The notes below the pieces were generated by a model that was not told where the DNA came from, searched no databases, and worked only from the letters and a program-made list of their open reading frames with translations. 64,000 nt of DNA from Escherichia coli (GTDB lineage Bacteria > Pseudomonadota > Gammaproteobacteria > Enterobacterales > Enterobacteriaceae): NCBI RefSeq assembly GCF_011045215.1, contig NZ_CP049201.1; one strand, given 5' to 3'. The position numbers were made by a program, and so were the translations under genes. Each line of letters opens with the position of its first letter. Positions within the stretch are counted from its first letter, which is position 1. Below are positions 3,922 to 61,914 of the stretch, one piece after another.

Positions 3922-5925
3922 TCAGGCATCTTTCACTCCCAGCACCTTATGCGCTTTTGCCACAATATTCTCGGCGGTAAAGCCAAAGAACGGGAACAGC
4001 TTATCCGCCGGAGCAGATTCCCCGTAACCCGTCATCCCGACAATTGCCCCTTTCAGACCAACATACTTGTACCAGTAATCGGCAATACCTGCTTCCACCG
4101 CCACGCGAGCCGCAACGTTAGAAGGCAACACCGACTCCCGATATTCCTCATCCTGGGCGTCGAAAATATCGGTCGAGGGCAGGGAAACTACGCGAACATT
4201 GCGACCTTCTCCCGCTAATTTCTCTGCCGCTTGCAGGGTGATTTCCATCTCTGAACCGGTGGCAATCAAAATAATATCTGGCTTACCGCCGCTGTCTTTC
4301 AGCACATAACCGCCACGAGCAATCTCTTTAACCTGATCCGGCGTACGTTCCACCTGGGCCAGATTCTGCCTGGAGAGAATCAGTGCCGTCGGTCCGTTGT
4401 GGCGCTCAACCGCCAGCTTCCAGCCCACCGCCGCTTCCACCTGATCGCACGGTCGCCAGGTGCTGAAATTTGGCGTTAAGCGCAGGCTGGCCAGTTGCTC
4501 AACAGCCTGGTGCGTCGGACCATCTTCGCCCAGGCCAATTGAGTCGTGGGTATAAACCATAATCTGCCGCGCTTTCATCAGTGCCGCCATCCGCGCGGCG
4601 TTACGGGCGTATTCAACAAACATCAGGAACGTCGCGGTATACGGCACAAAGCCACCGTGGTGCGCAATGCCATTGGCGATAGCGGTCATGCCAAATTCAC
4701 GCACCCCGTAGTGAATGTAGTTGCCCGCCGGATCTTCCTTCAGCGAAACAGAACCTTTCCAGATGGTCAGGTTGCTGGGAGCCAGATCCGCCGAACCGCC
4801 GAGCAGCTCCGGTAGTATCGGCCCGTAAGCGTTAAGCGTATTTTGCGAAGCCTTACGGGTAGCGATTTTCGCCGGATTCGCCTGCAACTCATTGATATAT
4901 TTCTGAGTCGTTTTCTCCCAGTCCTTCGGTAAACCACCGCTCATCCGACGGGTAAACTCTTCTGCCAGTTGCGGATGAGCCTTTTTATAGGCGGCAAACT
5001 TCTCATTCCAGCTCTGCTGCGCTTTTTCGCCTTTTTCGCGGGCATCCCAGGCGTGATAAATCTCTTTAGGGATCTCAAATGGCGGATGGTGCCAGCCCAG
5101 TTTTTGCCGTGCCAGCGCCACTTCTTCTTCCCCCAGCGGTGCGCCGTGCGCCTCTTCCTTACCTGCTTTATTCGGCGAACCAAAACCAATCACCGTACGG
5201 CAGATAATCAGCGACGGCTTATCTTTCACGCTTTGCGCTTCAAGGATCGCTTCCTTCACCGCCTGCGGATCGTGACCGTCGATTTCATGGATCACATGCC
5301 AGTGATAGGCTTCAAAACGTTTTGCCGTATCGTCGGTAAACCAGCCTTCGGTTTCTCCATCAATCGAAATACCGTTGTGATCGTAAAAACCAATCAGCTT
5401 GCCCAGTCCCAGCGTGCCCGCCAGCGAACAGACTTCGTGGGAAATACCTTCCATCAGGCAGCCGTCGCCCATAAACACATAGGTGAAGTGATCGACGATC
5501 TCATGGTCTGGCTGGTTAAACTGTGCAGCCAGCGTACGTTCCGCTATCGCCAGCCCGACGGCGTTCGCCAAACCTTGTCCAAGAGGACCGGTGGTGGTTT
5601 CAACTCCGGGCGTATAGCCGATTTCCGGGTGGCCAGGGGTTTTCGAATGCAGTTGACGAAAGTTCTTCAGCTCTTCCAGCGGCAGGTCGTAACCGGTCAG
5701 ATGCAGCAAACTGTAGAGCAGCATCGATGCGTGACCGTTGGAAAGAATAAAGCGGTCGCGATCATACCAGGTTGGGTCGGTAGGGTTATGTTTAAGAAAA
5801 TCGTTCCACAGCACTTCAGCAATATCAGCCATGCCCATCGGCGCGCCGGGATGACCAGAATTGGCTTTTTGTACCGCATCCATACTGAGTGCGCGAATCG
5901 CATTGGCAAGGTCTTTTCGGGACAT
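3922..5925 (-). CDS. tktB: Transketolase 2
   Basis: 667-aa product from ATG at 5925 ([14 protein letters not shown]...); TPP-binding transketolase motifs; co-located with talA as in the E. coli talA-tktB operon. Confidence 0.9.
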
Positions 5926-17237: not shown

Positions 17238-17420
17238 ATGCCGGATGCGACGCTTGCCGCGTCTTATCCGGCCTACGGGATTGCACATGTAGAGCGGATA
17301 AAGCGTTCACGCCGCATCCGCCAGTGGCGCGGTGCAATTGCCGGATGCGACGCTTGCCGCGTCTTATCCGGCCTACGGGATTGCACATGTAGTGCGGATA
17401 AGGCTTCACGCCGCATCCGC
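17238..17420. repeat. BIME/REP cluster (two near-identical ~85-bp units)
   Basis: Unit gccggatgcgacgcttgccgcgtcttatccggcctacgggattgcacatgtag...gcggataa..cacgccgcatccgc present twice between eutG and eutH. Confidence 0.7.
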
Positions 17421-18679: not shown

Positions 18680-20079
18680 ACACTCGCCAGCTACTGAGCG
18701 TCGGTATCGATATCGGCACTACCACCACCCAGGTGATTTTCTCCCACCTGGAACTGGTTAACCGTGCGGCGGTGTCGCAGGTGCCGCGCTACGAATTCAT
18801 CAAACGCGAAATTAGCTGGCAAAGCCCGGTGTTCTTTACCCCTGTCGATAAACAGGGTGATTTAAAAGAAGCGGAACTGAAATCGCTGATTTTAGAGCAA
18901 TATCAGGCTGCGGGCATTGCACCGGAAAGCGTTGATTCTGGTGCCATCATCATCACCGGTGAAAGCGCGAAAACCCGCAATGCTCGCCCGGCGGTGATGG
19001 CGCTCTCTCAGTCGCTGGGCGATTTTGTCGTTGCCAGCGCCGGGCCGCACCTCGAATCCGTGATCGCCGGTCACGGAGCCGGGGCACAAACCCTTTCTGA
19101 ACAACGGCTGTGTCGGGTACTGAATATCGACATCGGCGGTGGCACCGCGAACTACGCCCTGTTCGATGCCGGAAAAATCAGCGGCACTGCCTGCCTCAAC
19201 GTCGGTGGTCGCCTGCTGGAAACCGACAGCCAGGGGCGCGTGGTTTACGCTCATAAACCGGGGCAGATGATTGTGGATGAGTGCTTCGGCGCAGGCACCG
19301 ACGCCCGTTCGCTGACCGGCGCGCAGCTGGTGCAGGTTACCCGGCGGATGGCAGAGCTGATTGTCGAAGTGATTGACGGAACGCTCTCGCCGCTCGCGCA
19401 GGCATTGATGCAAACCGGTTTGCTGCCCGCAGGTGTTACGCCCGAAATCATTACGCTTTCTGGCGGCGTGGGCGAATGTTATCGCCACCAGCCCGCCGAC
19501 CCGTTCTGTTTTGCCGATATTGGCCCGCTTCTGGCAACGGCGCTGCATGACCATCCGCGCCTGCGTGAGATGAACGTGCAGTTTCCGGCGCAAACCGTGC
19601 GTGCCACGGTGATTGGCGCGGGGGCACATACCCTTTCGCTCTCTGGCAGCACAATCTGGCTTGAGGGCGTACAACTGCCGCTGCGCAATTTGCCGGTGGC
19701 GATCCCGATTGATGAAACGGATCTGGTGAGTGCCTGGCAACAGGCGCTGATTCAACTGGATCTTGATCCCAAAACTGACGCGTACGTGCTGGCGCTTCCC
19801 GCCTCGCTGCCTGTGCGTTACGCCGCGGTACTGACGGTCATCAACGCGTTGGTCGATTTCGTCGCGCGTTTTCCGAATCCGCATCCCCTGCTGGTGGTGG
19901 CCGGGCAGGACTTTGGTAAAGCTCTGGGCATGTTGTTGCGCCCACAGCTACAACAACTCCCGTTGGCAGTCATTGACGAAGTGATTGTCCGCGCGGGGGA
20001 CTATATCGACATTGGTACGCCTCTTTTTGGCGGATCGGTTGTGCCGGTGACGGTGAAATCACTCGCATTTCCTTCCTGA
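18676..20079 (+). CDS. eutA: Ethanolamine ammonia-lyase reactivase EutA
   Basis: 467-aa ORF, 4-nt overlap with eutH; eut operon synteny; followed by the inserted element. Confidence 0.9.
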   Translation: MNTRQLLSVGIDIGTTTTQVIFSHLELVNRAAVSQVPRYEFIKREISWQSPVFFTPVDKQGDLKEAELKSLILEQYQAAGIAPESVDSGAIIITGESAKTRNARPAVMALSQSLGDFVVASAGPHLESVIAGHGAGAQTLSEQRLCRVLNIDIGGGTANYALFDAGKISGTACLNVGGRLLETDSQGRVVYAHKPGQMIVDECFGAGTDARSLTGAQLVQVTRRMAELIVEVIDGTLSPLAQALMQTGLLPAGVTPEIITLSGGVGECYRHQPADPFCFADIGPLLATALHDHPRLREMNVQFPAQTVRATVIGAGAHTLSLSGSTIWLEGVQLPLRNLPVAIPIDETDLVSAWQQALIQLDLDPKTDAYVLALPASLPVRYAAVLTVINALVDFVARFPNPHPLLVVAGQDFGKALGMLLRPQLQQLPLAVIDEVIVRAGDYIDIGTPLFGGSVVPVTVKSLAFPS

Positions 20080-20172
20080 ATACTGTAGTTATCAGGCGTG
20101 GCGCTGGGTTGCGGGGTGTTAGTGGGATTATATCCGGCTGTGTATCCGGTCGGGGTGATTGGTCTGTATAGC

Positions 20173-20194
20173 AAAACCCGGCGCGGGGCCGGGT
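20173..20194 (-). terminator. Intrinsic terminator (minus-strand orientation)
   Basis: On minus strand reads ACCCGGCCCCGCGCCGGGTTTT: GC stem CCCGGC/GCCGGG followed by U-run, 7 nt after stop of the 20201-20761 gene; identical copy at 21822-21843. Confidence 0.6.
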
Positions 20195-20200
20195 GAACTA

Positions 20201-20761
20201 TCATTCAGGGAACAAGTTGATTTGAAGCAAACTGCCAATGTATTTACCAGTGCTTTTAATTTTTCGCTTTGATGGCTTACACGAATTCAGGTTGACACCA
20301 GCCTGGCTAGATATTGGCTTGTATTGCCGCTCCGCCAGTACGATCAGGTCTGCCGCGTCTTTTAGCTTTCCATCGTTAGCCAGTTCCAATGCTCGATCCG
20401 CCATTTGCCCGCATTGTTGAATCAGCTTAAGTTGCGATACCTCCAGTCGCAATTGCTGGATTCGTTCTACCACTTTCGCCCTAATGCGCTTAGTTTCACG
20501 CATTCCCATTCTTAATGCCTGGTTGCCAGTAAGTGAGTAAACCTCTTTTTCTTTCCTGAAGTTTGCGGCTTTACCGTCAGCTTGGACGCGCATTTTATGC
20601 GCTTCCAAGAATTCGCCCTCCAATTCATCCCTGATCTTCGCGTTGAATCTGTCGTTCTTGAGTTCATTTAACCCTTCCGCCTTGCGGATCTGGTTGATTA
20701 ACTCCAACAATTCATCACTGCGGATACGCCACTCGCTATCAACCTGTACCAAGTCAAACAT
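20201..20761 (-). CDS. Hypothetical phage protein (186 aa from ATG with GGGAG RBS; coiled-coil, possibly regulatory)
   Basis: ORF with good RBS upstream of internal ATG at 20761 (track start 20854 is TTG); no confidently recognised domain. Confidence 0.55.
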   Translation of the reverse strand: MFDLVQVDSEWRIRSDELLELINQIRKAEGLNELKNDRFNAKIRDELEGEFLEAHKMRVQADGKAANFRKEKEVYSLTGNQALRMGMRETKRIRAKVVERIQQLRLEVSQLKLIQQCGQMADRALELANDGKLKDAADLIVLAERQYKPISSQAGVNLNSCKPSKRKIKSTGKYIGSLLQINLFPE

Positions 20762-20924
20762 GTTGTTGCTCCCGTTTTGCTGCCATAGGGCAACGGCTCG
20801 CCAGCCTTTATCACCTCCTTTAGTTGTTGCGATTCTTAACTGAATGGTTATCAAAACGCTGCGTTAATATCATTGATATGTATCAAATTTGTTTTGTGAC
20901 GCGACAATGCCTTGTGAATATCAA

Positions 20925-20949
20925 TAAAAAACCCAGCGCTATGGCTGGG
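20925..20949 (-). terminator. Intrinsic terminator (minus-strand orientation)
   Basis: Minus strand CCCAGCcatagcGCTGGG followed by UUUUUU, 45 nt downstream of stop of 20995-21723 gene. Confidence 0.5.
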
Positions 20950-20994
20950 CTTCTCTTGATGGCTGGTTTTGTAGCTAATCGTTGGCTTTAAGGG

Positions 20995-21723
20995 TTAAGC
21001 AACAATATTAATCCCGCTCCTTGTCGCTGCCTCTTTGGCAATTTTCCCCTCGTCCTCCAGTTTAGCTAACGCCTTGTACATCCAGTGGCGGCCCGGTGCG
21101 CCATGCAGCTTGCCATCTTTGCCGATCTTACCGAACGCATGTAACGCCAAATCGTCGATAGTCCCCTTGTATCCGCCTTGCTCCTTAAGCCATTGCTCAA
21201 GCTGTTCTACTTTGAATTTTGCCGGACGTCCGCCAGCCGCTTTTTGTTGTTTAGCTGGTTCTTCTGCAATATCGCTTTTGTTGTTTAAGTCCGTCATGAC
21301 TGGTTCTCCTACAATAGCGTCGCCCTTGGTCTCGATTTGTTGATTAACTGGTTTGTCTACAATATCGATTTTGTTGTTTAGCTGGTTTTTCAACATATCA
21401 ATCTCAGCCTTTAGCGCCTCGTTTTCTCTGGCTAGTTCTTCGCAACGCTTGATAAATTTTTGTTCCATGCCGTCCGGGCTATCAACGTGCGCCGTACCCA
21501 TTACGATCTTCCCGTTGCTATCGAAGATGACAGCTTGCCAACCGACTGCGGCGAGCATTTTAAACACATCATCAGCGGTCTTGTTTGTTGTATCGCGACG
21601 CCCTTTAAACTTGTGGCTAGCAGCGCCTTTGCCTTTGAAGCCCATTGCCTCAGCGACATCTTGCCGCGTCATCTTGCGAGCGCGCTTGTTCATGCCTAAC
21701 TCAACCCAATCCATGTATTCCAT
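20995..21723 (-). CDS. Hypothetical phage protein with internal tandem peptide repeats (242 aa)
   Basis: ORF with GAGGT RBS; DNA and protein contain imperfect tandem repeats (LNNKIDIVDKPVNQQ / LNNKSDIAEEPAKQQ); basic N-terminal region possibly DNA-binding. Confidence 0.6.
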   Translation of the reverse strand: MEYMDWVELGMNKRARKMTRQDVAEAMGFKGKGAASHKFKGRRDTTNKTADDVFKMLAAVGWQAVIFDSNGKIVMGTAHVDSPDGMEQKFIKRCEELARENEALKAEIDMLKNQLNNKIDIVDKPVNQQIETKGDAIVGEPVMTDLNNKSDIAEEPAKQQKAAGGRPAKFKVEQLEQWLKEQGGYKGTIDDLALHAFGKIGKDGKLHGAPGRHWMYKALAKLEDEGKIAKEAATRSGINIVA

Positions 21724-21821
21724 ACATTACCTCATTTTGTCGCTAAACGTTTTGCTTTCTAATTTATCAACAAAAAAGCGGGTGATGGTAGCCGCTTTGA
21801 TGGGGAAGTTGACAGGGATCA

Positions 21822-21843
21822 AAAACCCGGCGCGGGGCCGGGT
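21822..21843 (-). terminator. Intrinsic terminator (minus-strand orientation), identical copy of 20173-20194
   Basis: Same 22-bp sequence aaaacccggcgcggggccgggt; 18 nt downstream of stop of AlpA-like gene 21861-22091. Confidence 0.6.
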
Positions 21844-21860
21844 ATTAGCAAGTTAGATGA

Positions 21861-22091
21861 TTACTGGGTATCGCTGTCAGAAAGTAGTCCAATTGATTTA
21901 AAGAATTTCATCACATCCTGATAGCGATACATGACGCCCCGCCCGGTTCCCAGCACATCAACAGGGTCGGGGAATGGAGTTCCGTTCTGTTCCCATTTCT
22001 TACGCCACGAATAAAACGTTCCCCTGCTAATTCCGCCCAGCATCCGGCAGATGGCAGGGCGGCTAAGAAGGATTACTTCATTTTTATCCAT
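21861..22091 (-). CDS. AlpA-family phage transcriptional regulator / excisionase-like HTH protein (76 aa)
   Basis: Motif LSRPAICRMLGGISRGTFYSWRKK...FPDPV typical of AlpA/Xis-type HTH; GGGAGA RBS. Confidence 0.6.
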   Translation of the reverse strand: MDKNEVILLSRPAICRMLGGISRGTFYSWRKKWEQNGTPFPDPVDVLGTGRGVMYRYQDVMKFFKSIGLLSDSDTQ

Positions 22092-22110
22092 TGTTTAATC
22101 TCCCGTGTGT

Positions 22111-22299
22111 TTATTTTGCGTAGATTAAGGCAAATGCTCTTTTGGCTTTGCTTAGTTCGTATTCGCGTTTTTCTATGATTGCCATCAGTTCTTGTGCGGT
22201 GGCTGGCACGCCCGCTCTTATCAGCGCAATCTTAGTATCCATAGCGCACACTCTTTCACGCACCATATCGAAGATAATTTCCGCTCTATCGTGTTTCAT
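22111..22299 (-). CDS. Small hypothetical protein (62 aa)
   Basis: ORF with strong GAGGTGA RBS 5 nt upstream of ATG; 19 bp upstream of AlpA-like gene, likely co-transcribed. Confidence 0.5.
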   Translation of the reverse strand: MKHDRAEIIFDMVRERVCAMDTKIALIRAGVPATAQELMAIIEKREYELSKAKRAFALIYAK

Positions 22300-22648
22300 G
22301 ATTTCACCTCATATTTGTTGCTAAACCTTGTAAACCCTTGTTTGACTACAAAATACACCTGGTTAAGCGACTGATAAAATGATTTAGGTCAATTTATTGG
22401 TTGATGATTTATGTCTGATTGGATTTGTCTACAAATGGCAGGTTAGTCAACAAATGATGAAACCAGGGAATGGCGGTTATAATGTCAGCGGGGATTGTGA
22501 GAAAGGCCCGGGTAGGTTGCTAACTGCCTGGGCCTTTATTTTTGGCGCGTGTACGTGAAATCTGGAAAATTTGCAGGGTAGTTGTTGAGGGATTTTTCGC
22601 GTAGGAGCGTGAAGGGTCCGCCAGTCATCGCCCTGACGTAGCGGTGAA

Positions 22649-23050
22649 TTACTTGCGAGGCTCACCCATCGGCCAGGCACCTTCATTGCGACGATAACCA
22701 ATCCGGTACTCTTCCGGCAGCGGCAAGCCCTGCTCACGATATGGACGCAGATCGAAGCCAAAAACAGGATCGTCGTCGTAGGCGAGGAATAGCCCGGCAG
22801 GCTCTGCCACGCGTTCGATAATCAGTTCCCCATCTTCAACGAAGAAGATCAGATTATCGCGAAAGTCCGTTACCTCACTGACGTGATAACATTCGGCATG
22901 TGCGTCCAGCCAGGCTTCTCGGTATTCCTGAATCTCGGCTTCTGACCATGTTGAAACAGGACGCTCCCAAATTCCCAGGCTGGATTTGCCCTGGCGGGAG
23001 AATAATTTTGCCTCTTTGCTCTGCTCTGGTTTTCTGTTTAAAAAGCTCAT
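22649..23050 (-). CDS. Hypothetical protein (133 aa)
   Basis: ORF with AAGGAGAA RBS; no recognised domain. Confidence 0.55.
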   Translation of the reverse strand: MSFLNRKPEQSKEAKLFSRQGKSSLGIWERPVSTWSEAEIQEYREAWLDAHAECYHVSEVTDFRDNLIFFVEDGELIIERVAEPAGLFLAYDDDPVFGFDLRPYREQGLPLPEEYRIGYRRNEGAWPMGEPRK

Positions 23051-23186
23051 TATTCTTCTCCTTTGAACGGATTGTTCTTGCTCTCTAATAACTTAGCGCG
23101 ACCCAGTAACGTCCGGGCAAGCGCCTCCGCCTTCCTTAGCCTAAGCCCTGCGTCTTCTGCGTCCAGATCTACATTCCTGATAGCCT

Positions 23187-23450
23187 CTACAGCCTGCTCC
23201 GCTGCGTCCGGGCGTGAATCCACTTAAATATGCCGATATGCTCACGAAAGTCTGGATGCTCATATTGCCAGCGGCAGATTGTTCTGAAGCTCGGCATGTC
23301 AGGCATGTTGCCAATCTCTCTGAGACTATGGCCTTCAGCTACCAGCAAGCAGATTTCTTCAGCGATAGCGACCCCATACTTAGCGCTTTTTCTGCTTAAA
23401 CTTGTGACATCAACAGGTAAGTTATTGATTTCTTTATCATCACCCTTCAT
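23187..23450 (-). CDS. Small HTH protein resembling the DNA-binding domain of phage terminase small subunits (87 aa)
   Basis: Motif AEGHSLREIGNMPDMPSFRTICRWQYEHPDFRE resembles TerS-type HTH; GGGGGTAA RBS; family assignment is from memory and tentative. Confidence 0.4.
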   Translation of the reverse strand: MKGDDKEINNLPVDVTSLSRKSAKYGVAIAEEICLLVAEGHSLREIGNMPDMPSFRTICRWQYEHPDFREHIGIFKWIHARTQRSRL

Positions 23451-23525
23451 AATTACCCCCGAATTGATAGCGAATTGATAGCGAATTACCCCGAATTACC
23501 CCCGAATTACCCCCGAATCACCATC
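23451..23525. repeat. Tandem array of about 6.5 copies of an 11-bp unit (AATTACCCC(C)G x4 and AATTGATAGCG x2)
   Basis: Directly visible: aattaccccc g aattgatagc g aattgatagc g aattacccc g aattaccccc g aattaccccc g aatcaccatc, exactly filling the gap between the 93-aa gene stop and the 87-aa gene start. Confidence 0.85.
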
Positions 23526-23527
23526 AT

Positions 23528-23809
23528 TTAACCCTCGCCTACGTCTGCGTCGATGCTTGCTAACTGGCTGTGTAGATCGCGTTCAATCATTTTTACCTTT
23601 TTCACAAAATCCCTTTCCTCGGCGGTGGCGGGCGCGCCCTGGGCTATGTTTTTCGTGAGGTCGTGGAAAGTGCCGAAAACATAAAGGGAGAACAGCCTTA
23701 ATTGTTGCCGCTTCATTGGCAAATCACTGTTGCTATGTTTGATCTCAGCGACGCCTTTCGAAATAACACGGGCCATCCCATGACAAATTCTTAACGTAAG
23801 CGCAGACAT
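23528..23809 (-). CDS. Hypothetical protein (93 aa)
   Basis: ORF with GGGGAG RBS; no recognised domain. Confidence 0.5.
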   Translation of the reverse strand: MSALTLRICHGMARVISKGVAEIKHSNSDLPMKRQQLRLFSLYVFGTFHDLTKNIAQGAPATAEERDFVKKVKMIERDLHSQLASIDADVGEG

Positions 23810-23930
23810 GATATTTACTCCCCGACTGGTATAATGAACGTGGTTTTAAACGTTGCTATTTGCTAACCATTTAATCTGTTAACTCAATTTCGCATTGTTG
23901 GCCCGGCACGAACACCGGGCTTTTCTTTAC

Positions 23931-24272
23931 CTATTCGAAATAGCTTCCAATATCCGGTGTCCGGGTATCAGTTTTCCGGGTCGGCTCGAAGTACGATTCC
24001 AGATCCGGCGTTTTCGGCCCACGCTGGGCGTTGGCGGCGGGTTGCTTTTCTTCTGGCTGTTCCGGCTGTTTACTACCAAATCGGCGCTCCAGTTGGTCCA
24101 TCAGCACTACCATCATTTCCTGGACCAGCTTTTCATCGGCTTTATCAAGGTTCTCCAATACCATCGCCATCCCTTTGCGGAATTTAAGCTCAGCGTCGTC
24201 CGGTTCCGGTGCTGATTCGTTTGCTTTAACTGCCAGGGCGATCCGGCGTTTTGCTTCATCCAAAAAATTCAT
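23931..24272 (-). CDS. Hypothetical acidic protein ending in repeated SYFE motif (113 aa)
   Basis: ORF with GGGGGAA RBS overlapping stop of upstream gene; C-terminus ...DLESYFEPTRKTDTRTPDIGSYFE. Confidence 0.5.
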   Translation of the reverse strand: MNFLDEAKRRIALAVKANESAPEPDDAELKFRKGMAMVLENLDKADEKLVQEMMVVLMDQLERRFGSKQPEQPEEKQPAANAQRGPKTPDLESYFEPTRKTDTRTPDIGSYFE

Positions 24273-24277
24273 TTTGT

Positions 24278-24721
24278 TTATTCCCCCATGTGGAAATAGT
24301 CATCTAAGCGGCGATTAAACTCGTCGCTGCCATCGAAATATTCACGGATACTTTTATTGACCAGATCATCACCGTCGAAATACTGGCGCGTGAAATCGTC
24401 CAATTCCCCATCGAAGTATTGACGTGTGAAATCGTCTAATTCCCCTTCAAAATATTGACGCGCATCAGGCGCTCTGTTTGGCGCTGTAGCAATCTCAGAT
24501 TGATTGCCCTGTAACTTATCGACGTTTGCTAAATACACGCCCAGTGAGCTGTTTGTTCCCATTACCGCAAGCATTTTCCGGCGATCTGCCATGTTCGGCG
24601 CGAGCGATGATAATTGAGCTTTAATTTTGTCCACTTCCTGATTAACAATACGGTCAATCAGTGGTTGATTCGTGCGAATAATTTCCTGTGCCAACTGGCG
24701 AATATATTCTTTGCGTGTCAT
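24278..24721 (-). CDS. Hypothetical protein with C-terminal tandem RQYF(D/E)GELDDFT repeats (147 aa)
   Basis: ORF with GGAGAT RBS; encoded by about 3.5 tandem 36-bp DNA repeats near 24330-24465. Confidence 0.55.
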   Translation of the reverse strand: MTRKEYIRQLAQEIIRTNQPLIDRIVNQEVDKIKAQLSSLAPNMADRRKMLAVMGTNSSLGVYLANVDKLQGNQSEIATAPNRAPDARQYFEGELDDFTRQYFDGELDDFTRQYFDGDDLVNKSIREYFDGSDEFNRRLDDYFHMGE

Positions 24722-24739
24722 TTCTTATCTCCGTTCATC

Positions 24740-25123
24740 TCATTTCTGTAAAAAACCCATACCGTGGCCCAGGCGATTTGAAATTTTCCCGGCAAGCATC
24801 CGGCGAATATGTTTTTCGTTGATGATGTCGTGAGTGACCGGATCTTCACCTTTCATACATTCCGGCATCTGGTCAAACAATACGGAAGCGCCTTCATCAA
24901 TAATCTCAGTTAAGACTGCTGGCAGCATATTAATGATGCGTTCTGCTTCGTCGTTCATTGCTTTATCGAACGCTTTTTTATCCATTGCTTCGGCGGATGG
25001 TTTGTAATTGTCGCCAGTCAGGTTAAGGTAAGTGTTGTTTGGGTGATACATGGCATTCACTCCTTTTACTTTGATTGTTGCGATTTCTTTGTTTTTGTTA
25101 ATTGTGGTGCCTTTGACTTTCAT
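24740..25123 (-). CDS. Hypothetical protein (127 aa)
   Basis: ATG overlaps stop of HNH gene (ATGA), suggesting translational coupling; no recognised domain. Confidence 0.5.
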   Translation of the reverse strand: MKVKGTTINKNKEIATIKVKGVNAMYHPNNTYLNLTGDNYKPSAEAMDKKAFDKAMNDEAERIINMLPAVLTEIIDEGASVLFDQMPECMKGEDPVTHDIINEKHIRRMLAGKISNRLGHGMGFLQK

Positions 25124-25539
25124 GCTGCTTCTTCCTTCAATAATTGTGGCAATTTGCCTGTTAGTTCGATTTCTTCATTAATAGATGCAAGTAACTGTCT
25201 CAGTTTGCGATGTAATAGCTGGTGACGCTCTCTCGGCATTTTTACCAGGTTGCTTAAGCGGTTATTCTGCGGATCGTAGTCCCGGTGATGGATATCATAT
25301 TTTCGCTCATCGTAAACACCGTAGCACCATAACCAGGCAGCCTTTTCTATTGTCATGCAGGTACGTTTTCCGTTGCTTAAACAAATGGTTATACTCAGGT
25401 GACCGCGATGTTTTTCGTTTAAGCTGCCTTTAATTACCTGGCCTGTGCTGCGGTTGTGAAATAAACCAGTTTCAGGGTCGTAGTGATATTTCTGTCGTAA
25501 TATATCAACTGATAACCGTAGTCTTGTAAGATTGTCCAT
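25120..25539 (-). CDS. HNH homing-type endonuclease (139 aa)
   Basis: Motif YDIHHRDYDPQNNRLSNLVKMPRERHQ (HH...N...N...H) typical of phage HNH nucleases; GAGGTAG RBS. Confidence 0.7.
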   Translation of the reverse strand: MDNLTRLRLSVDILRQKYHYDPETGLFHNRSTGQVIKGSLNEKHRGHLSITICLSNGKRTCMTIEKAAWLWCYGVYDERKYDIHHRDYDPQNNRLSNLVKMPRERHQLLHRKLRQLLASINEEIELTGKLPQLLKEEAA

Positions 25540-25571
25540 GATGTTCTACCTCAATGTGATTGCTGTGTTAA

Positions 25572-25757
25572 TTATCTTTCTTCTTGTGGCCTATTCAGCC
25601 AGGCCTCGATCTCGCTACGCCAGAATAATAAACGACAATTTCGCGGCGTAAATGGTTGGGGTATTGTCTTATCTTTTAATAGCCATCTTCGAATCGTTCT
25701 TGTTGATACCCCCGCTATTAATGCGAAAGCTCGCAGATCTATAACTTCATCTCTCAT
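25572..25757 (-). CDS. AlpA-like HTH regulator (61 aa from ATG with GAGGT RBS)
   Basis: Sequence LIAGVSTRTIRRWLLKDKTIPQPF...WRSEIEAWL matches AlpA/Xis-type HTH pattern; track ORF start 25862 is a TTG extension. Confidence 0.55.
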   Translation of the reverse strand: MRDEVIDLRAFALIAGVSTRTIRRWLLKDKTIPQPFTPRNCRLLFWRSEIEAWLNRPQEER

Positions 25758-26537
25758 GTTCTTACCTCGATTAAAAAGGACCGCCCCCAGGGAAAGAAGA
25801 AAGAGGAAAGAGGAAAGAGGAAAAACTTCCTGGAGGCGGGTAATTCGGATTCCTTGAATCAATATCCCATGTGATACTTAATATTATAAAGGGCGGCGGG
25901 CTATGTCGCTATTTTTGCCATAGTGTGACACCATTAATTTATTAACAAAAAGTGCTATTTATTAAATCTTTTTTCGGCAGGTGCAAGAAAAATAATTGCG
26001 ACACGGTAGGGTAGCGGGCGATAATAATCATGTAAGGAGTAGCCACCTTACGCCTCCAAATGTGATCGATAAAAATAATAGTCTCAATTCTTTCTCCCGC
26101 TTCTCGGCGGTTTTTTTGCCTGCAATCACACATCAAAAAAACACATCGAATTGATATGCCTTTAAAACGCAATATAACGCATTTTGACGGCCTTAATTTT
26201 TGCCTATCCACTCGGAAGCGTAAGCCTGTTTTGATTCGTCTGGCGTGGAATGGTGCGGCGGTAATATCAGATCTCAGCGTTCTGTGTGGTGGGATGGAAT
26301 AGCCTGGCAGGATCTGCGTGTGATTTCATTCATCCAACCTTGGATGAATGGTCCGATCTGGTCAGTAGTCCGGCACAAATAAAAAGCGCCTGCGGGCGTA
26401 GCAGACGCTTTGTGTACAGGCTTATCAGTACGGGATGTGCACGAATGATTATACCACCCTCAGAAAAACGTTTGCTTTTGCACTTAAACGGATAAGTGGT
26501 ATTTCTTGGTCTTCATTGGTTTTAGCTCACCATAGGC

Positions 26538-26765
26538 TCATTTAGGTGCGCCCCTGTCGATAATTCGGTACATGTTCTCGGTATATCTCCCGTTAATCAC
26601 CGTTCTGGTAACAACAATCACACCGTTTTCCTCCAGAAAGGCAATGGCCCGCTTCACTCCCTGGCGGCTTACACCGGATAGCTGCGCCAGCCTGTCAATG
26701 GAGATGTTGTATTTGTCCGGCTGGCTTGTCAGGATCTGGAATACCGCTCGTGCTGTTTTCGTCAT
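26538..26765 (-). CDS. Small winged-helix DNA-binding protein (75 aa), candidate regulator
   Basis: Sequence ISIDRLAQLSGVSRQGVKRAIAFLEENGVIV has HTH character; divergent from the plus-strand cassette; RBS weak. Confidence 0.45.
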   Translation of the reverse strand: MTKTARAVFQILTSQPDKYNISIDRLAQLSGVSRQGVKRAIAFLEENGVIVVTRTVINGRYTENMYRIIDRGAPK

Positions 26766-27037
26766 GGCAAAAACTCATTGAAATTGGATACCCTTAGAAC
26801 GCTCTCAAACGCTCCGTAATGCGATGAGAATTTTACCTAAGCAAGTGTAGCTCTTTATTAGTTTTATGATGCCGTAGGCCGATAGAAGGTGCGCTCTCTG
26901 AAGTTTCATTGTCTATCAGTGGTGGGTAATGCTGCCTTTACTATTGGCGTCAAGAAAATCACTGGTGTAGATTGGGCGAATAGTTTACTATTCAAACAAG
27001 GCACAATGGCCTTAGCGGATTGATGTCAGGAGATACC

Positions 27038-27385
27038 ATGTCAAAAATAGTTACTTTGTTTGCGACTAAGCGAGAAGGGAAATCCCTTTCTGTGCGCACT
27101 CGTAAGCCAAAAGCTATGACTGGCTTGCGTAAAACAAATCGTCTGACGCATCTTGACGCGTTAGCGTATCGACTAGGATACCAGTTGGTGCGCGGTAAAA
27201 GTGTCATGTTTCGCTACACTGCTACTCTCGATCACGAAGAAAACAAAGTGATGAATGCGGCCTCGCCTATGGCTGTACCACGAGTAAAAAAAATGACGTT
27301 CACACAAGCGTGTGATTTATCAAAAGATTTATTCGATTCACGAGAAGAACGCTTAAAGAGTGTAAGCTTTGATGGTCCAGAATGA
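27038..27385 (+). CDS. Basic 115-aa protein, candidate partner (antitoxin or regulator) of downstream YafO-like gene
   Basis: ATG at 27038 preceded by AGGAGA RBS; stop overlaps start of next gene by 14 nt; basic N-terminus and acidic C-terminus; no recognised family. Confidence 0.5.
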   Translation: MSKIVTLFATKREGKSLSVRTRKPKAMTGLRKTNRLTHLDALAYRLGYQLVRGKSVMFRYTATLDHEENKVMNAASPMAVPRVKKMTFTQACDLSKDLFDSREERLKSVSFDGPE

Positions 27386-27887
27386 ATTTATTGGTAAGGT
27401 CTACAGTGATAACAAGTTTAAAACAAACGATGAATTAAAGAGCTTTAAGGATTCGTTTATTTATCATTGGAGATATGGACATCATCCTGATTTTGGAAAG
27501 GATACTCTTTTCCATAAACCCCCGTGTGTATATCCTATCCATTTACGTAAAGTCCATGTAAATATTGGTCTTTATACCAATCAGTACGGCTATAGCGGGA
27601 CAGAACAATGCTGGGATGACTGGTCTACTGGTCGTTATGGTCCCGGTGGTTTCGAAAAAGTTACCCCTACATCTGATGCTTATCTTATATACGCTGTATG
27701 TAAAAATAGAAATGCTGGCGTGTTAGACTTCTGGTTTCCTCCCGCACACAAAAACGCTGAGTTCGAATCCTCTGTACAGTTTGTGGCTGAGATGGCTGAT
27801 AAGTTTTATGAGTCTATCAAGGCGGACCCGATGCCGCGCGATCAGAATCCTTGGCATACGGGGTATATAGTTAAAAAACCAGCCTGA
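27372..27887 (+). CDS. YafO-family toxin-like protein (171 aa)
   Basis: Motifs F-I-Y-H-W-R-Y-G...PDFGKDTLF, YPIHLRKVHVN and SDAYLIYAV line up with recalled YafO motifs (FISYKRDG...PDIFGRDALY, ERVAHIHLAN, DEAHLVYCQG); similarity judged from memory, not computed. Confidence 0.45.
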   Translation: MVQNEFIGKVYSDNKFKTNDELKSFKDSFIYHWRYGHHPDFGKDTLFHKPPCVYPIHLRKVHVNIGLYTNQYGYSGTEQCWDDWSTGRYGPGGFEKVTPTSDAYLIYAVCKNRNAGVLDFWFPPAHKNAEFESSVQFVAEMADKFYESIKADPMPRDQNPWHTGYIVKKPA

Positions 27888-28438
27888 TCCACGCAATACT
27901 GATTGTTTTTGGCCTTGTATGGTGTGGTCTGATTTGAGGCAAAATTATTTAATCCCTTAAAAAACTAACTTCAAAAGACTAAAACCAGGGGGATGGTCCC
28001 TCTCGCTCCGCTCCAGGTACCATCCCTGTCGGGATGGGTTTATTGTAGAGTTAAAATTAATTACTCACATCGTCACACCTTGCGAAAGTTTTGCTCAATT
28101 ATCATTCAAACATAGCACAAAAAATATTCGATTTAGTTAGTGTGCACTGACTTTTTTATCAATTTACTTTCATTCGAAAGTCATGGGTTAAATATTAATC
28201 ATCTGGCTGTGGCACGCATGGATTCACCGAGGGTATTTTGGACCATTTGGTCAAAATTCATAAGTACATGATTTCATGGTGATTTATTTTTCTGTATCTT
28301 GCTTTCATTCGAAAGTGGAAACGAAGAATTGGCAATTTATTGATTCAGATCATTGACATTGCATATTTGTGGCGGTTGTCACGGTTGTTTTTTGAGCGCT
28401 TCAACCGTCGATATTGAGTATAAACCCGGCCTTATAGT

Positions 28439-29644
28439 TCACGGTTCAAGTGGATTACCGTCACCAGCCAATATTGAATCAATAGCGTCGGCGTAATCCT
28501 GCATCATTGCTCGCCGTTGCTTCAGGTAGGCCGCCTGGTTATAAACGCCGCGCACACCTTTCGGGACGTGGGCCAATTGGATTTCGATCCAGTCTGGTGA
28601 GTATCTGCCAGACTCATTAAGCGCCGTTGAAAAGGTGGTCCGCCAGCCATGACCAGTGGCAATGGATTTATAGCCGATCCTCTCAAGCGCCTTCAGTATC
28701 GCGCTGGCTGAAAGTGGCTTATCCATGAATCGACCAGGGAAGACGAAAGCACTGTATCCGCTCCTTGTAAACTGGTCCTGTAATAGCTCCACCGCCTGCC
28801 GTGATAGCGGGACCACATGCGGGCGGCGGGCCTTCATGACTTCAGCGGGCAATGTGATTGTTGCGTCCTCCAGGTTTATCCATTCCCAACGGCACAAACG
28901 CAGTTCTGCGGTCCTTAATGCCGTTAATATAAGCAAACGTATTGCCGTCTGAATCTGGACGCTCCCGGCCCTCTCAAGGGCTTTGTAGAAGGCCGGAATT
29001 TCACTAATCGGTATCCACGCGTTGTGACCAGGTCGGCGGGCCTTCAGTGCCGTATCAAGATCTGCAACCGGATTCCTCGTTACCAGTTCGGTGATAACGG
29101 CAAACTTGAAGATCTCACCGATGCGCTGGCGTAGCTTGCGGGCCTGCTCCGGTGCGGTACGTTCTTTCTTCTGGAGTAATGCCAGCACGTCACGGGCGGT
29201 TATATCGACAATCGACCGCTTGCCAAGTACCGGATAGACGTCTTTTTCTAGGGCCGATCTGACCTGTTTTGCATAGGATTCCGACCACCCTCCAACCCTA
29301 GTAGCAAACCAGTCTTCCGCCACCTTCTTAAATCCTGCCGCCATGTTGAGCGCATCAATGGCTTTTTCCTTGCGGGCTTGTTCCACTGGGTTAATTCCAT
29401 TGGCAATAAGGGATCTGCTCTCCGTGGCGCGCCTGCGTGCTTCTTTGAGTGTGATTAGCGGGTAAACACCAATAGCCTGCAAAAACTCTCGTTTATTCAA
29501 CCAATACCTGAATCGCCAGTATTTCGAACCGTTGGGATGCACCAGCAAAAACAGCCCCGGCGTCAGTGAATCGGTGAGTTTATAGGGCTTGTCCTGCGGC
29601 TGTGCGGCGTCTATGGCCTTTGCTGTGAGTGGTGTCTTGCTCAA
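28439..29644 (-). CDS. intZ: Tyrosine-type site-specific integrase (prophage integrase)
   Basis: 401-aa ORF with phage integrase features (N-terminal arm-binding domain, C-terminal catalytic region with ...HGWRTT...); sits at the element end beside eutB as intZ does in E. coli K-12; start appears to be TTG. Confidence 0.8.
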   Translation of the reverse strand: MSKTPLTAKAIDAAQPQDKPYKLTDSLTPGLFLLVHPNGSKYWRFRYWLNKREFLQAIGVYPLITLKEARRRATESRSLIANGINPVEQARKEKAIDALNMAAGFKKVAEDWFATRVGGWSESYAKQVRSALEKDVYPVLGKRSIVDITARDVLALLQKKERTAPEQARKLRQRIGEIFKFAVITELVTRNPVADLDTALKARRPGHNAWIPISEIPAFYKALERAGSVQIQTAIRLLILTALRTAELRLCRWEWINLEDATITLPAEVMKARRPHVVPLSRQAVELLQDQFTRSGYSAFVFPGRFMDKPLSASAILKALERIGYKSIATGHGWRTTFSTALNESGRYSPDWIEIQLAHVPKGVRGVYNQAAYLKQRRAMMQDYADAIDSILAGDGNPLEP

Positions 29645-29832
29645 AACCGGATACCTTGATTTAACGACTGGATAACCCCGATCATGTATCCGGCGCGTTC
29701 GGTTGCGTTCGGCAGGATAAGTAACGGGCGTATTAAGTGGAACACCTTACAGGACAAGGGCTAACGATGAAATAGAATTGTTTGCAGGCTGTGAGAAATG
29801 TTAATCGTCACTTCTTCCTGAGGGAACGACTT

Positions 29833-31194
29833 ATGAAACTAAAGACCACATTGTTCGGCAATGTATATCAGTTTAAGGATGTAAAAGAGGTGCTGGCTAA
29901 AGCCAACGAACTGCGTTCGGGGGATGTGCTGGCGGGCGTCGCAGCGGCAAGCTCACAGGAGCGCGTGGCGGCAAAGCAGGTGTTGTCGGAAATGACCGTA
30001 GCGGACATCCGCAATAATCCGGTGATTGCCTATGAAGATGACTGCGTGACGCGGCTGATTCAGGACGATGTTAACGAAACGGCCTACAACCAGATTAAAA
30101 ACTGGAGCATCAGCGAACTGCGTGAGTATGTGCTGAGCGATGAAACCAGCGTGGACGACATTGCCTTTACCCGCAAAGGGCTGACCTCGGAAGTGGTCGC
30201 GGCGGTAGCGAAGATTTGCTCCAACGCGGACCTGATCTACGGCGCGAAGAAAATGCCGGTAATCAAAAAGGCCAATACCACCATCGGTATTCCGGGCACC
30301 TTCAGCGCCCGTTTGCAGCCAAATGACACTCGTGACGACGTGCAAAGTATCGCCGCGCAAATCTACGAAGGGCTTTCCTTCGGGGTGGGCGATGCGGTGA
30401 TCGGCGTTAACCCGGTGACTGACGACGTGGAAAACTTAAGCCGCGTGCTGGATACCATTTATGGCGTGATCGACAAATTCAACATCCCAACTCAGGGCTG
30501 CGTACTGGCGCACGTCACCACTCAGATCGAAGCGATTCGTCGTGGCGCACCAGGCGGGCTGATTTTCCAGAGTATCTGTGGCAGTGAAAAAGGGCTGAAA
30601 GAGTTTGGCGTGGAACTTGCGATGCTCGACGAAGCGCGCGCAGTGGGTGCAGAGTTCAACCGTATCGCCGGGGAAAACTGCCTCTACTTCGAAACCGGAC
30701 AAGGTTCAGCGCTATCCGCTGGCGCTAACTTCGGCGCAGACCAGGTGACGATGGAAGCACGTAACTATGGGCTGGCGCGTCATTACGATCCGTTTATCGT
30801 CAACACCGTGGTCGGCTTTATTGGGCCGGAGTATCTCTACAACGACCGCCAGATTATCCGTGCGGGCTTAGAAGATCACTTTATGGGCAAGCTGAGCGGC
30901 ATCTCTATGGGCTGTGACTGCTGTTACACCAACCACGCTGACGCTGACCAGAACCTCAACGAAAACCTGATGATCCTGCTCGCCACCGCAGGCTGCAACT
31001 ACATCATGGGGATGCCGTTGGGCGATGACATCATGCTCAACTACCAGACCACGGCCTTCCACGACACTGCCACTGTGCGTCAGTTACTCAACCTGCGCCC
31101 GTCACCGGAGTTTGAACGCTGGCTGGAAAGCATGGGCATTATGGCAAACGGTCGCTTGACCAAACGGGCGGGCGATCCGTCACTGTTCTTCTGA
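29833..31194 (+). CDS. eutB: Ethanolamine ammonia-lyase large subunit
   Basis: 453-aa product from ATG at 29833 (MKLKTTLFGNVYQFKDVKEV...); EutB family. Confidence 0.9.
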   Translation: MKLKTTLFGNVYQFKDVKEVLAKANELRSGDVLAGVAAASSQERVAAKQVLSEMTVADIRNNPVIAYEDDCVTRLIQDDVNETAYNQIKNWSISELREYVLSDETSVDDIAFTRKGLTSEVVAAVAKICSNADLIYGAKKMPVIKKANTTIGIPGTFSARLQPNDTRDDVQSIAAQIYEGLSFGVGDAVIGVNPVTDDVENLSRVLDTIYGVIDKFNIPTQGCVLAHVTTQIEAIRRGAPGGLIFQSICGSEKGLKEFGVELAMLDEARAVGAEFNRIAGENCLYFETGQGSALSAGANFGADQVTMEARNYGLARHYDPFIVNTVVGFIGPEYLYNDRQIIRAGLEDHFMGKLSGISMGCDCCYTNHADADQNLNENLMILLATAGCNYIMGMPLGDDIMLNYQTTAFHDTATVRQLLNLRPSPEFERWLESMGIMANGRLTKRAGDPSLFF

Positions 31195-61715: not shown

Positions 61716-61775
61716 ATCGCAGATAGCAAAAAAGCGCCTTTAGGGCGCTTTTTTACATTGGTGGGTCGTGCAGGA
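61716..61775. repeat. Duplicated copy of the lysV 3-prime end plus its terminator (60-bp direct repeat; second copy at 61872-61931 is the native one)
   Basis: atcgcagatagcaaaaaagcgcctttagggcgcttttttacattggtgggtcgtgcagga occurs twice 156 bp apart; the last 17 nt are the tRNA-Lys acceptor/T-arm end. Confidence 0.75.
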
Positions 61776-61914
61776 TGACTCGCTTCGCTCGCCCTTCGGG
61801 CCGTCGCCGCGAGCGGCTCCGTTGTTTCGCTACGCTCAACTCAAACCTGCTGCAGGTTCGAATCTTTGAGTATCGCAGATAGCAAAAAAGCGCCTTTAGG
61901 GCGCTTTTTTACAT

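Follow-up and report, generated by a model that had tools for sequence, protein, structure and literature searches.

We analyzed a 64,000-nucleotide (nt) stretch of Escherichia coli DNA (contig NZ_CP049201.1; hereafter the window, in whose numbering all coordinates are given). Comparison of related loci shows that a site between a gene for a YafO-like toxin and the convergent integrase gene intZ represents the one-copy state of a 41-base pair (bp) palindromic tandem repeat, in which the third of three GGGATGG segments is the stub of a next unit. The same comparison shows that the repeat is linked to a noncoding module adjoining the 3′ end of intZ and that the YafO cassette is variable cargo and not part of the hairpin module. 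We tentatively read the structured repeat, which stands at the edge of the integrase module, as a leaky bidirectional intrinsic terminator or insulator, a function to which we assign somewhat less than an even chance. The structural description of the repeat is much more secure than this function.

A 41-bp palindromic tandem repeat of variable copy number

An earlier description of the site, prepared from the letters of the window alone (the sequence-only reading), noted three GGGATGG-related segments: segment A pairs with segment B, B can pair instead with segment C, and C is followed by GTTTATTG. The sequence and a repeat search agree with this description (Table 1). The search returned the A and B arms (12 nt, 92% complementary, 13 nt apart), the B and C arms (7 nt, 100% complementary, 4 nt apart), and A and C as a direct repeat with a spacing of 41. 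Segment B, the spacer, and segment C form a perfect 18-bp palindrome, CCATCCC-TGTC-GGGATGG. The GGGATGG heptamer is not enriched window-wide (8 found, 7.1 expected); three of the eight matches fall within 48 nt, and we estimate from that density that ~1e-4 such triplets would be expected by chance.

The alignment of the region comprised 22 loci of E. coli genomes and 12 of metagenomes. Hairpin A-B and the 4-nt spacer constitute a 41-bp tandem-repeat unit that is present in 0–4 copies among the aligned loci. One unit is found in 22 loci with the cassette designated type 1, the window among them; two units are found in L004, three in L003 and L146, and four in L006, for which Tandem Repeats Finder reported a period of 41, 3.9 copies, and a 100% match. 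The single strain with no unit (L005) retains one GGGATGG. Carriers of the type-1 cassette include LH13-b, TST3, and O157:H7 PV15-279. The alignment identifies segment C as a truncated beginning of a further 41-bp unit. B pairs either way because this stub is present, a property that follows automatically from palindromic units in tandem. Strains ES5 and 1504D004 have identical flanking proteins, yet they contain four and three copies, respectively; this one-unit difference between identical neighbors indicates that copy number changes quickly.

Four spacer sequences occur: TGTC, TGAC, GACA, and GTCA. All arrays of more than one unit end in a spacer whose reverse complement is used at the internal positions, with the pair GTCA/TGAC in L003, L004, and L006 and the pair GACA/TGTC in L146. 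Copy number would change by slippage between GGGATGG copies, and slippage alone would yield identical spacers. Slippage followed by template-switch correction of the extended quasi-palindrome CCATCCC-s-hairpin-s-GGGATGG (s, spacer) would flip them. Such correction would render both spacers complementary and create a perfect 19-bp stem, which folds with −24.4 kcal/mol and a z-score (z) of −9 under DNA parameters. Later unequal exchange would multiply the internal spacer, and contraction of an array would account for the lone GACA in L007. Inverted duplication was excluded as a source of flipped spacers by the asymmetric inner loop, which has the same orientation in all units. From the pattern of spacer flips, we infer that the hairpin forms in DNA in vivo. 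Template-switch correction at a palindrome also means that selection need not be the only force preserving complementarity; templated mutation could do so too. The flip rule would provide a clean natural case of template-switch correction in a quasi-palindrome.

Conservation and folding of the two helices

Sixteen further genomes, including ATCC 8739, share the module from position 28082 rightward and carry a diverged cassette, designated type 2, that has the same architecture. At the same place, the type-2 cassette reads GGGTGGACCCACTCGCTGCGCTCCTGGTTCCACCC-CTGAC-GGGGTG-TTATTAG, in which CACCCC-TGAC-GGGGTG is the equivalent of B:C. The flanks of the repeat have type-2 homologues (left, GATAAAAACAAGGA; right, TTATTAGTTTAAT), and other flanking sequence is diverged. 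The two cassette types can still be aligned, and their ungapped alignment reveals that, where a single change turns CCATCCC of B into CCACCCC, A and C both carry the matching change, which argues that both helices are maintained. A:B and B:C share arm B and are mutually exclusive, as the sequence-only reading had noted, and both are kept in type 2.

The A:B hairpin (27990–28026), which is larger than had been stated, comprises three successive stems (8, 3, and 2 bp) capped by a 3-nt loop. All 13 stem pairs are retained across five distinct unit sequences (slid controls, 35–49% paired), with compensatory double changes at three pairs: A-U to G-C once and U-A to A-U twice. Variation within type 1 is limited to a single mismatch column and the middle loop base. 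As isolated RNA hairpins, A:B and B:C fold with −17.2 and −11.3 kcal/mol on the plus strand and with −19.2 and −12.2 kcal/mol on the minus strand; with these energies and the conservation of its pairs, the site has the stable, GC-rich stem-loop expected of an intrinsic terminator. Compared with shuffled sequences, the 86-nt stretch folded as RNA shows a modest gain (z −1.5 plus, −2.5 minus). The isolated unit folded with DNA parameters yields z −3.1 on the plus strand and −4.1 on the minus strand (energies, −7.3 vs −10.0 kcal/mol).

Partition-function folding had been named by the sequence-only reading as a check. The A:B and B:C conformers are nearly isoenergetic in context, and the probability (P) of A:B on the plus strand ranges from 0.29 to 0.95 with the amount of upstream RNA included. 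The corresponding range for the big hairpin on the minus strand is 0.05–0.95. The idea that A:B simply outcompetes B:C was dropped in view of this spread, and the strong context dependence means that a switch is not dismissible on thermodynamic grounds. In each direction, the helix that does not adjoin the U-tract is transcribed first.

A candidate bidirectional terminator or insulator

An A-rich and a T-rich tract border the repeat on opposite sides, and the repeat lies between the integrase module and variable cargo, features that lead us to the bidirectional terminator or insulator reading. The A-tract to the left of the hairpin and the T-tract to its right are homologous in both cassette types despite their diverged surroundings, and the site in the window lies between convergent genes (YafO-like and intZ). 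The left flank (27956–27989) reads CCTGGTTTTAGTCTTTTGAAGTTAGTTTTTTAAG on the minus strand, where it forms a T-rich tract after the big hairpin; apart from one A/G site, it is nearly invariant across type-1 loci regardless of the sequence further left. The right flank is invariant in type-1 loci save for G/A at its first base and for two recombinant loci described below.

In the mechanism that we envision, transcripts running leftward (minus strand) out of intZ or the module would end at the big hairpin and its UUUU, and those running rightward out of YafO or other cargo would end at the short B:C hairpin and the GUUUAUUG behind it. Because the two have arm B in common, each terminator would have to compete with the other helix, so that termination would probably be leaky, and copy number may shift the strength and direction of the terminator. 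The sequence that follows the big hairpin on the minus strand is CCUGGUUUUAGUCUUUUG in type 1, where CCTGG precedes TTTT, and UCCUUGUUUUUAU in type 2, where TCCTTGTTTTTAT stands directly after the stem. Behind B:C, the plus strand reads GUUUAUUG in type 1 and UUAUUAGUUUAAU in type 2; B:C with the tail GTTTATTGTA is the only site here that a simple terminator scan flagged (plus strand). Tail scores computed by hand in the style of TransTermHP were approximately −2.1 to −2.5 (type 1) and −3.2 (type 2) for the minus strand and −3.2 (type 1) and −3.9 (type 2) for the plus strand. When one unit is folded with 40-nt flanks, the minus-strand terminator hairpin has a P of 0.93–0.97, and the plus-strand 3′ end is mostly unpaired (~0.09). 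With two or more units and the same flanks, the extended hairpin ends exactly at the plus-strand tail with a P of 0.97–1.0, and the minus-strand hairpin is weakened to 0.09–0.7.

Several observations weigh against this reading. In type 1, the minus-strand U-run lies 4–5 nt past the stem, and its tail score of −2.1 to −2.5 is borderline. The plus-strand tail adjoins the weaker helix, which is mostly unformed in the one-copy window (P ~0.09; range, 0.04–0.70). In L009-type islands, the start of a 54-codon gene that has a good ribosome-binding site lies 74 nt downstream of the hairpin, and no promoter was found between them; an efficient terminator there would silence the gene. No hairpin at all is present in one strain (L005), and the complementarity of the stems could be kept by templated mutation rather than selection. 

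Should the terminator reading hold, the element would be an ordinary insulator of unusual build, with overlapping hairpins, a mini-hairpin cap, and a strain-variable number of units, and the strains would offer a natural series of 0–4 units for testing the effect of tandem palindromes on terminator strength and direction. A bolder extension, which we consider a long shot, is a terminator that is tuned by copy number and switches direction, such that GGGATGG slippage would serve as a heritable switch of transcription between the integrase module and the rest of the island. With two or more units, the 19-bp extended palindrome would take up the arm needed by the minus-strand terminator. The same extension supposes that the cap GAGCGNAGCGAG marks an unrecognized class of super-stable hairpins, with RtT and unrelated repeat families of different bacterial and archaeal phyla reusing the one cap.

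The apex of the hairpin

The apex of the hairpin, CTCGCTNCGCTC (read as GAGCGNAGCGAG on the minus strand), is identical in both cassette types except for a free middle base at 28008, around which the neighboring bases are invariant. On the plus strand this base is C, A, or T in type 1 and G in type 2, and thus all four bases occur. The minus strand at 28005–28011 reads GCGGAGC, which fits the motif GCGNAGC with any base at N. GCGNAGC forms an unusually stable DNA mini-hairpin with a G-N-A loop for any N, and such motifs occur at the G4 origin, in ssiA of RSF1010, and in the hairpin promoters of N4 (PMC13037366). Two G.A mismatches below the mini-hairpin on the minus strand are able to stack as tandem pairs, and the same positions on the plus strand are pyrimidine-pyrimidine mismatches. 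The energy models used here omit the special stability of GCGNAGC, yet they already favor the minus strand. The purines at the apex point to the minus strand as the one that folds more stably.

Matches to the apex are found far from this locus. The pattern CCCNCTCGCTNCGCTCNNGGT occurs in representative genomes of many phyla, with at least 133 matches in at least 120 stretches. Those listed come from Gemmatimonadota, Chloroflexota, Bacteroidales, Akkermansia, Acidobacteriota, Actinomycetota, haloarchaea, and others. Most of the listed matches belong to multi-copy repeat families of the form CCCC-CTCGCTNCGCTC-GGGG, often followed by (A/G)TGAC; their middle base is free (T 43, A 40, G 32, C 18), and dozens of copies lie at contig ends of one Bacteroidales metagenome-assembled genome. 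None of the listed apex-bearing repeats is an Rfam family. The window itself contains five matches to the apex 12-mer with at most one mismatch, compared with 1.3 expected, and none of 100 shuffles reached five. An RtT RNA (RF00391) lies downstream of four tRNA genes at 61759–61884 on the minus strand and contains GAGCGNAGCGAG at 61779–61790 and 61826–61837; the apex motif is part of the Rfam RtT consensus. In Escherichia sp. ESNIH1 (L052, ~430–500), two copies of CTCGCTNCGCTC stand beside a tRNA gene and a match to Ysr251 RNA, an arrangement that is RtT-like and not a relative of the island cassette. The cap GAGCGNAGCGAG looks like a widely reused stable hairpin end and not a mark of common descent. 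The recurrence of these 12 bases, in RtT as well as in repeat families from many phyla, merits a study of its own.

Distribution of the cassette

The pattern of the hairpin unit was found at 37 places in 35 genomes, all of them at one locus. The exact-arm pattern had no match in viral contigs or in representative genomes of 100,044 species; the left-flank pattern had one match in viral contigs (L011), which was taken as chance. Searches for the module in 50,697 phage records and in a plasmid collection returned matches at chance level or none, and similarity to phage cos/pac sites was likewise at chance level in the phage records. These results argue against a shared cos/pac or plasmid element. 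The hairpin cassette is absent from CPZ-55 of K-12 (L155) and from IntZ relatives of 66–68% identity at the same site (L156, L157). Our literature search found the unit sequence in no paper and nothing relevant on CPZ-55 or on satellites at eut. No Rfam family matched the site in a permissive scan of 25500–30000 (E up to 10) or in a scan of the whole window at gathering scores.

Two metagenome loci, L144 and L147, combine the type-1 left flank and hairpin with a third variant of the right flank, TTAATATTGAAATTGATTGTTTACATTAACGACGTCGCGAAAG, which is type-2-like and begins after GGGATGG(A/G)TTTATT. These recombinant cassettes indicate that cassette edges recombine. In place of the cassette, CPZ-55 of K-12 MG1655 has four tandem iterons of 22–23 bp (GGCAACTTTTGACCCACCTTAAC) between yffL and yffM (L155, ~4470–4560), which are likely an origin or binding array.

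The integrase module and its island

The ~480-bp noncoding module (27956–28438) occurs in 51 of 5426 complete E. coli genomes, with 87–98% identity, and always beside the 3′ end of intZ. The sequence-only reading placed the hairpins downstream of the toxin cassette. Their distance from that cassette was given correctly as about 100 nt, inasmuch as segment A begins 103 nt past the stop of the YafO-like open reading frame (ORF) at 27887. A link to the toxin cassette is not supported: the element belongs to the 3′ module of intZ and is unchanged where YafO is replaced by unrelated minus-strand genes. To the left of the module, the window and its relatives have the YafO pair, L002 and L138 have a different YafO-family gene at a greater distance, and L003, L004, L009, L010, and L139, in which YafO is absent beside the cassette, have small minus-strand genes. 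The annotation logic is corrected accordingly: the element marks the integrase-module boundary of eutA/eutB islands and not a toxin cassette.

Table 1. Position of the repeat, its parts, and adjoining features in the window
Feature	Coordinates	Strand	Description
Upstream partner of YafO-like gene	27020–27385	plus	The pair (27020–27887) is the only plus-strand cassette
YafO-family toxin-like gene	27369–27887	plus	Weak Pfam YafO_toxin match (E 2.6e-4, below cut-off); RefSeq: YafO family toxin
Left flank of repeat	27956–27989		CTTAAAAAACTAACTTCAAAAGACTAAAACCAGG; A-rich on plus strand
Segment A	27990–28000		GGGATGGTCCC; GGGATGG copy at 27990–27996
Hairpin unit H (A + B)	27990–28026		GGGATGGTCCCTCTCGCTCCGCTCCAGGTACCATCCC; 37 nt; with spacer, 41-bp unit, one copy here
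Hairpin apex	28002–28013	minus	Reads GAGCGGAGCGAG; GCGNAGC mini-hairpin (G-N-A triloop) with flanking tandem G.A/A.G
Segment B	28016–28026		GGTACCATCCC; complement CCATCCC at 28020–28026
Spacer	28027–28030		TGTC, 4 nt; loop of B:C palindrome
Segment C	28031–28037		GGGATGG; truncated start of next repeat unit; arms found by repeat search
Sequence directly after segment C	28038–28045		GTTTATTG
Right flank	28038–28073		GTTTATTGTAGAGTTAAAATTAATTACTCACATCGT; begins with T-rich tail of plus-strand B:C hairpin
Rest of noncoding module	28074–28438		Between repeat and intZ stop codon; common to both cassette types from 28082 on
intZ	28439–29644	minus	P4-type tyrosine integrase with arm-binding domain; PHROG integrase match (E 3.6e-68); RefSeq annotation of homologous loci

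Alignment of the loci revealed no conserved ORF in the module; its small ORFs differ between variants. Promoters were sought in the module on both strands and in four variants; the best candidates had 8–9 of 12 matches, and none was common to both cassette types. The module contains CGAAAGT three times (28083, 28175, and 28310) and the palindrome (A)CTTTCATTCGAAAGT twice (28166–28181 and 28302–28316; 135 nt apart). On the minus strand at 28333–28345 lies AATCAATAAATTG, which resembles the IHF consensus, and GCGAAAGTTTTGC is also present between 28074 and 28438. This part of the module resembles a regulatory or origin-like region. A terminator-like site on the plus strand (28367–28394), in which a short stem is followed by TTGTTTTTTG, stands 45 nt before the intZ stop and is aimed into intZ. 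This site, which is kept in all variants, might end a plus-strand noncoding transcript of the module.

intZ forms the right edge of an island of ~9.6 kb that lies between eutA (end near 20079) and eutB (start 29782) and occupies the site of the cryptic prophage CPZ-55 in K-12. Except for the YafO pair, the principal ORFs of the island lie on the minus strand; among their products are small-terminase-like, HNH endonuclease, AlpA-like and other helix-turn-helix, and anti-repressor-like proteins. This gene content points to a phage-satellite-like make-up. The cargo (20080–29700) depends on the strain: the window has anti-repressor-like and 242-amino-acid genes at the left end, and L001 (2105–4285) and ATCC 8739 have a 726-amino-acid protein of no clear family with only a weak tape-measure-like match. 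No replication gene was recognized in the island of the window or in the cargo of L001 and ATCC 8739.

The 54-codon gene in L009-type islands is on the minus strand, begins with GAGGA-N7-ATG, and has its start 74 nt downstream of the hairpin. Window positions 27915–27955 align with the start region of this gene (GAGGATACCATCATG in the L009 type), and the ATG is lost in the window. This segment is probably a decayed remnant from replacement of the 54-codon gene by the YafO cassette, and the ancestral neighbor was therefore probably a co-oriented gene and the toxin cassette a later replacement. An imperfect direct repeat of 19 nt (79% identity; GAGGCAAAATTATTTAATC at 27936–27954 and GAGTTAAAATTAATTACTC at 28048–28066) flanks the hairpin cassette with a spacing of 112 nt; it could be chance or the trace of an insertion.

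Elsewhere in the window, a weak match to the OrzO-P antitoxin RNA at 26382–26449 on the minus strand (23.3 bits vs a gathering score of 60; E 1.7) amounts to a terminator-like hairpin and is probably due to chance. A match to naRNA4, a nucleoid-associated RNA derived from repetitive extragenic palindromic (REP) sequences, lies just upstream of a eutH-like permease gene at 17292–17373 on the plus strand and scores 65.3 bits, above its gathering score.

Alternative explanations

The sequence-only reading suggested that the site may be a conditional terminator after the toxin cassette. Spelled out for the plus strand, B:C and GUUUAUUG would end the YafO transcript, A:B would be the anti-terminator, and a signal would decide between them. 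Part of this proposal stands: B:C with its T-rich tail is terminator-like in both types, was flagged by the terminator scan, and has decent tail scores (~−3.2 and −3.9). Both helices are conserved across types, and the conformers are nearly isoenergetic in some contexts, with P(B:C) reaching 0.70 when the full 3′ untranslated region is included. The A/B/C arrangement is not fixed, however, as copy number varies from 0 to 4, and islands lacking an upstream plus-strand gene carry the cassette unaltered. Of the two helices, A:B is made first during transcription and, folded alone, is the stronger. We found no ligand, leader-peptide, or protein-sensing part, and Rfam returned no match. Control of read-through between the cassette and the integrase had also been suggested; intZ is convergent with YafO, and read-through from the cassette would therefore be antisense to intZ and would not express it. 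We regard a conditional terminator of this kind as very unlikely. A regulated leader attenuator on the opposite strand is unlikely. A promoter in the intZ-proximal module would drive a leftward operon, and the big hairpin with UUUU would be the leader terminator; the 5′ stub C′ would pair with B′ first and seed an anti-terminator, and a factor of the island or a helper phage, or copy number, would set read-through. The ancestral left neighbor, a minus-strand gene 74 nt after the hairpin with no promoter-like site between, fits this arrangement, as do the better folding of the minus strand and a terminator helix whose P varies between 0.05 and 0.95 with upstream context and is lower in arrays of two or more copies. 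It is opposed by the failure to find a promoter of 9/12 or better in the module, by the offset of the type-1 U-tract from the stem, and by the window, in which a toxin cassette of opposite orientation has taken the place of the downstream gene and the element is unchanged; no factor or binding site was identified.

The remaining alternatives are a DNA-level element and a repeat without function. An extruded or single-stranded hairpin could act as a signal, for example as a site of single-strand initiation or priming, or CCATCCC-N4-GGGATGG could be bound by a dimeric island protein. The spacer flips, which are best explained by hairpin formation of the DNA in vivo, are consistent with such a role, as is the adjoining module with its short repeated motifs and IHF-like site. 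A further lead is the primosome assembly site of pBR322, which may contain GAGCGCAGCGAG; the literature confirms an ssiA site at ColE1-type origins. The apex is a GCGNAGC mini-hairpin with a free N, a kind of motif known from the G4 origin, RSF1010 ssiA, and N4 promoters (PMC13037366). Opposed to this are the absence of a recognizable replication gene from the island and of a tie to any origin, and a protein operator leaves the covarying inner stem and the conserved apex unexplained. An N4 virion-polymerase hairpin promoter was rejected, because N is not limited to purines and the 5-bp Watson-Crick stem that such promoters require is absent. We judge a DNA-level element quite unlikely. A neutral or selfish palindromic repeat without island function, kept by palindrome-templated mutation and slippage, would account for the variable copy number, the complete loss of the unit in L005, and the active templated mutation revealed by spacer flips. 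It also agrees with the narrow distribution (51/5426 E. coli genomes and none in representative genomes of other species, phages, or plasmids). We doubt this explanation, because the architecture, apex, and A/T-tract flanks are retained between types though other flanks have diverged, the immediate flanks are better conserved than the remaining module, and the unit is not dispersed in the genome and hence not spreading. The terminator or insulator reading remains the one that we favor.

Comparison with known systems

Attenuators of the trp-leader type and the immunity system of P4 (seqA, seqB, seqC, and CI RNA) employ two direct copies and one segment complementary to both. The repeat resembles them in its mutually exclusive pairings beside a U-rich tract and in its location on a satellite-like island. 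It differs in that no leader peptide, aptamer, or trans-acting RNA was found and in that all three segments fall within 48 nt. Covariance models for P4 CI RNA and C4 gave no match in 25500–30000 (E up to 10) or in the whole window. Unlike an attenuator or riboswitch, the repeat has no fixed 5′-leader architecture and occupies a leader position only on the minus strand and in some islands. Unlike the arrays of clustered regularly interspaced short palindromic repeats (CRISPR), its units abut with a 4-nt spacer and are not separated by unique spacers of ~30 nt.

At its apex, the repeat shares the 12-mer GAGCGNAGCGAG with RtT (RF00391); no RtT covariance match was obtained at the island hairpin, and RtT, unlike this element, is derived from and associated with tRNA operons. 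The minus-strand GCGGAGC with its free N corresponds to the GCGNAGC mini-hairpin of Hirao and co-workers (PMC13037366). Here the mini-hairpin caps a longer hairpin over tandem G.A pairs, whereas the known natural cases are priming sites and N4 promoters.

Like bidirectional intrinsic terminators between convergent genes, the repeat combines a GC-rich hairpin with A- and T-tracts on opposite sides and lies between the convergent YafO-like gene and intZ. It departs from them in having two overlapping hairpins that share one arm instead of one symmetric stem, in a unit that can be amplified in tandem, and in the 4–5-nt offset of the type-1 minus-strand U-run. REP sequences and bacterial interspersed mosaic elements (BIMEs) of E. 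coli are extragenic, clustered palindromic units that vary in number among strains and have proposed roles in termination and mRNA stabilization. The island repeat is similarly an imperfect palindrome of ~35–37 nt that forms extragenic clusters with a strain-variable number of units (0–4 here). In contrast to REP/BIME, it occurs at one locus per genome, has no REP sequence or GTAG foot, is not accompanied by a gene for a REP-associated tyrosine transposase (RAYT) in the island, and has its units in direct and not alternating orientation. The repeat thus combines features of two known kinds of element, terminator hairpins and REP/BIME-like clustered palindromes.

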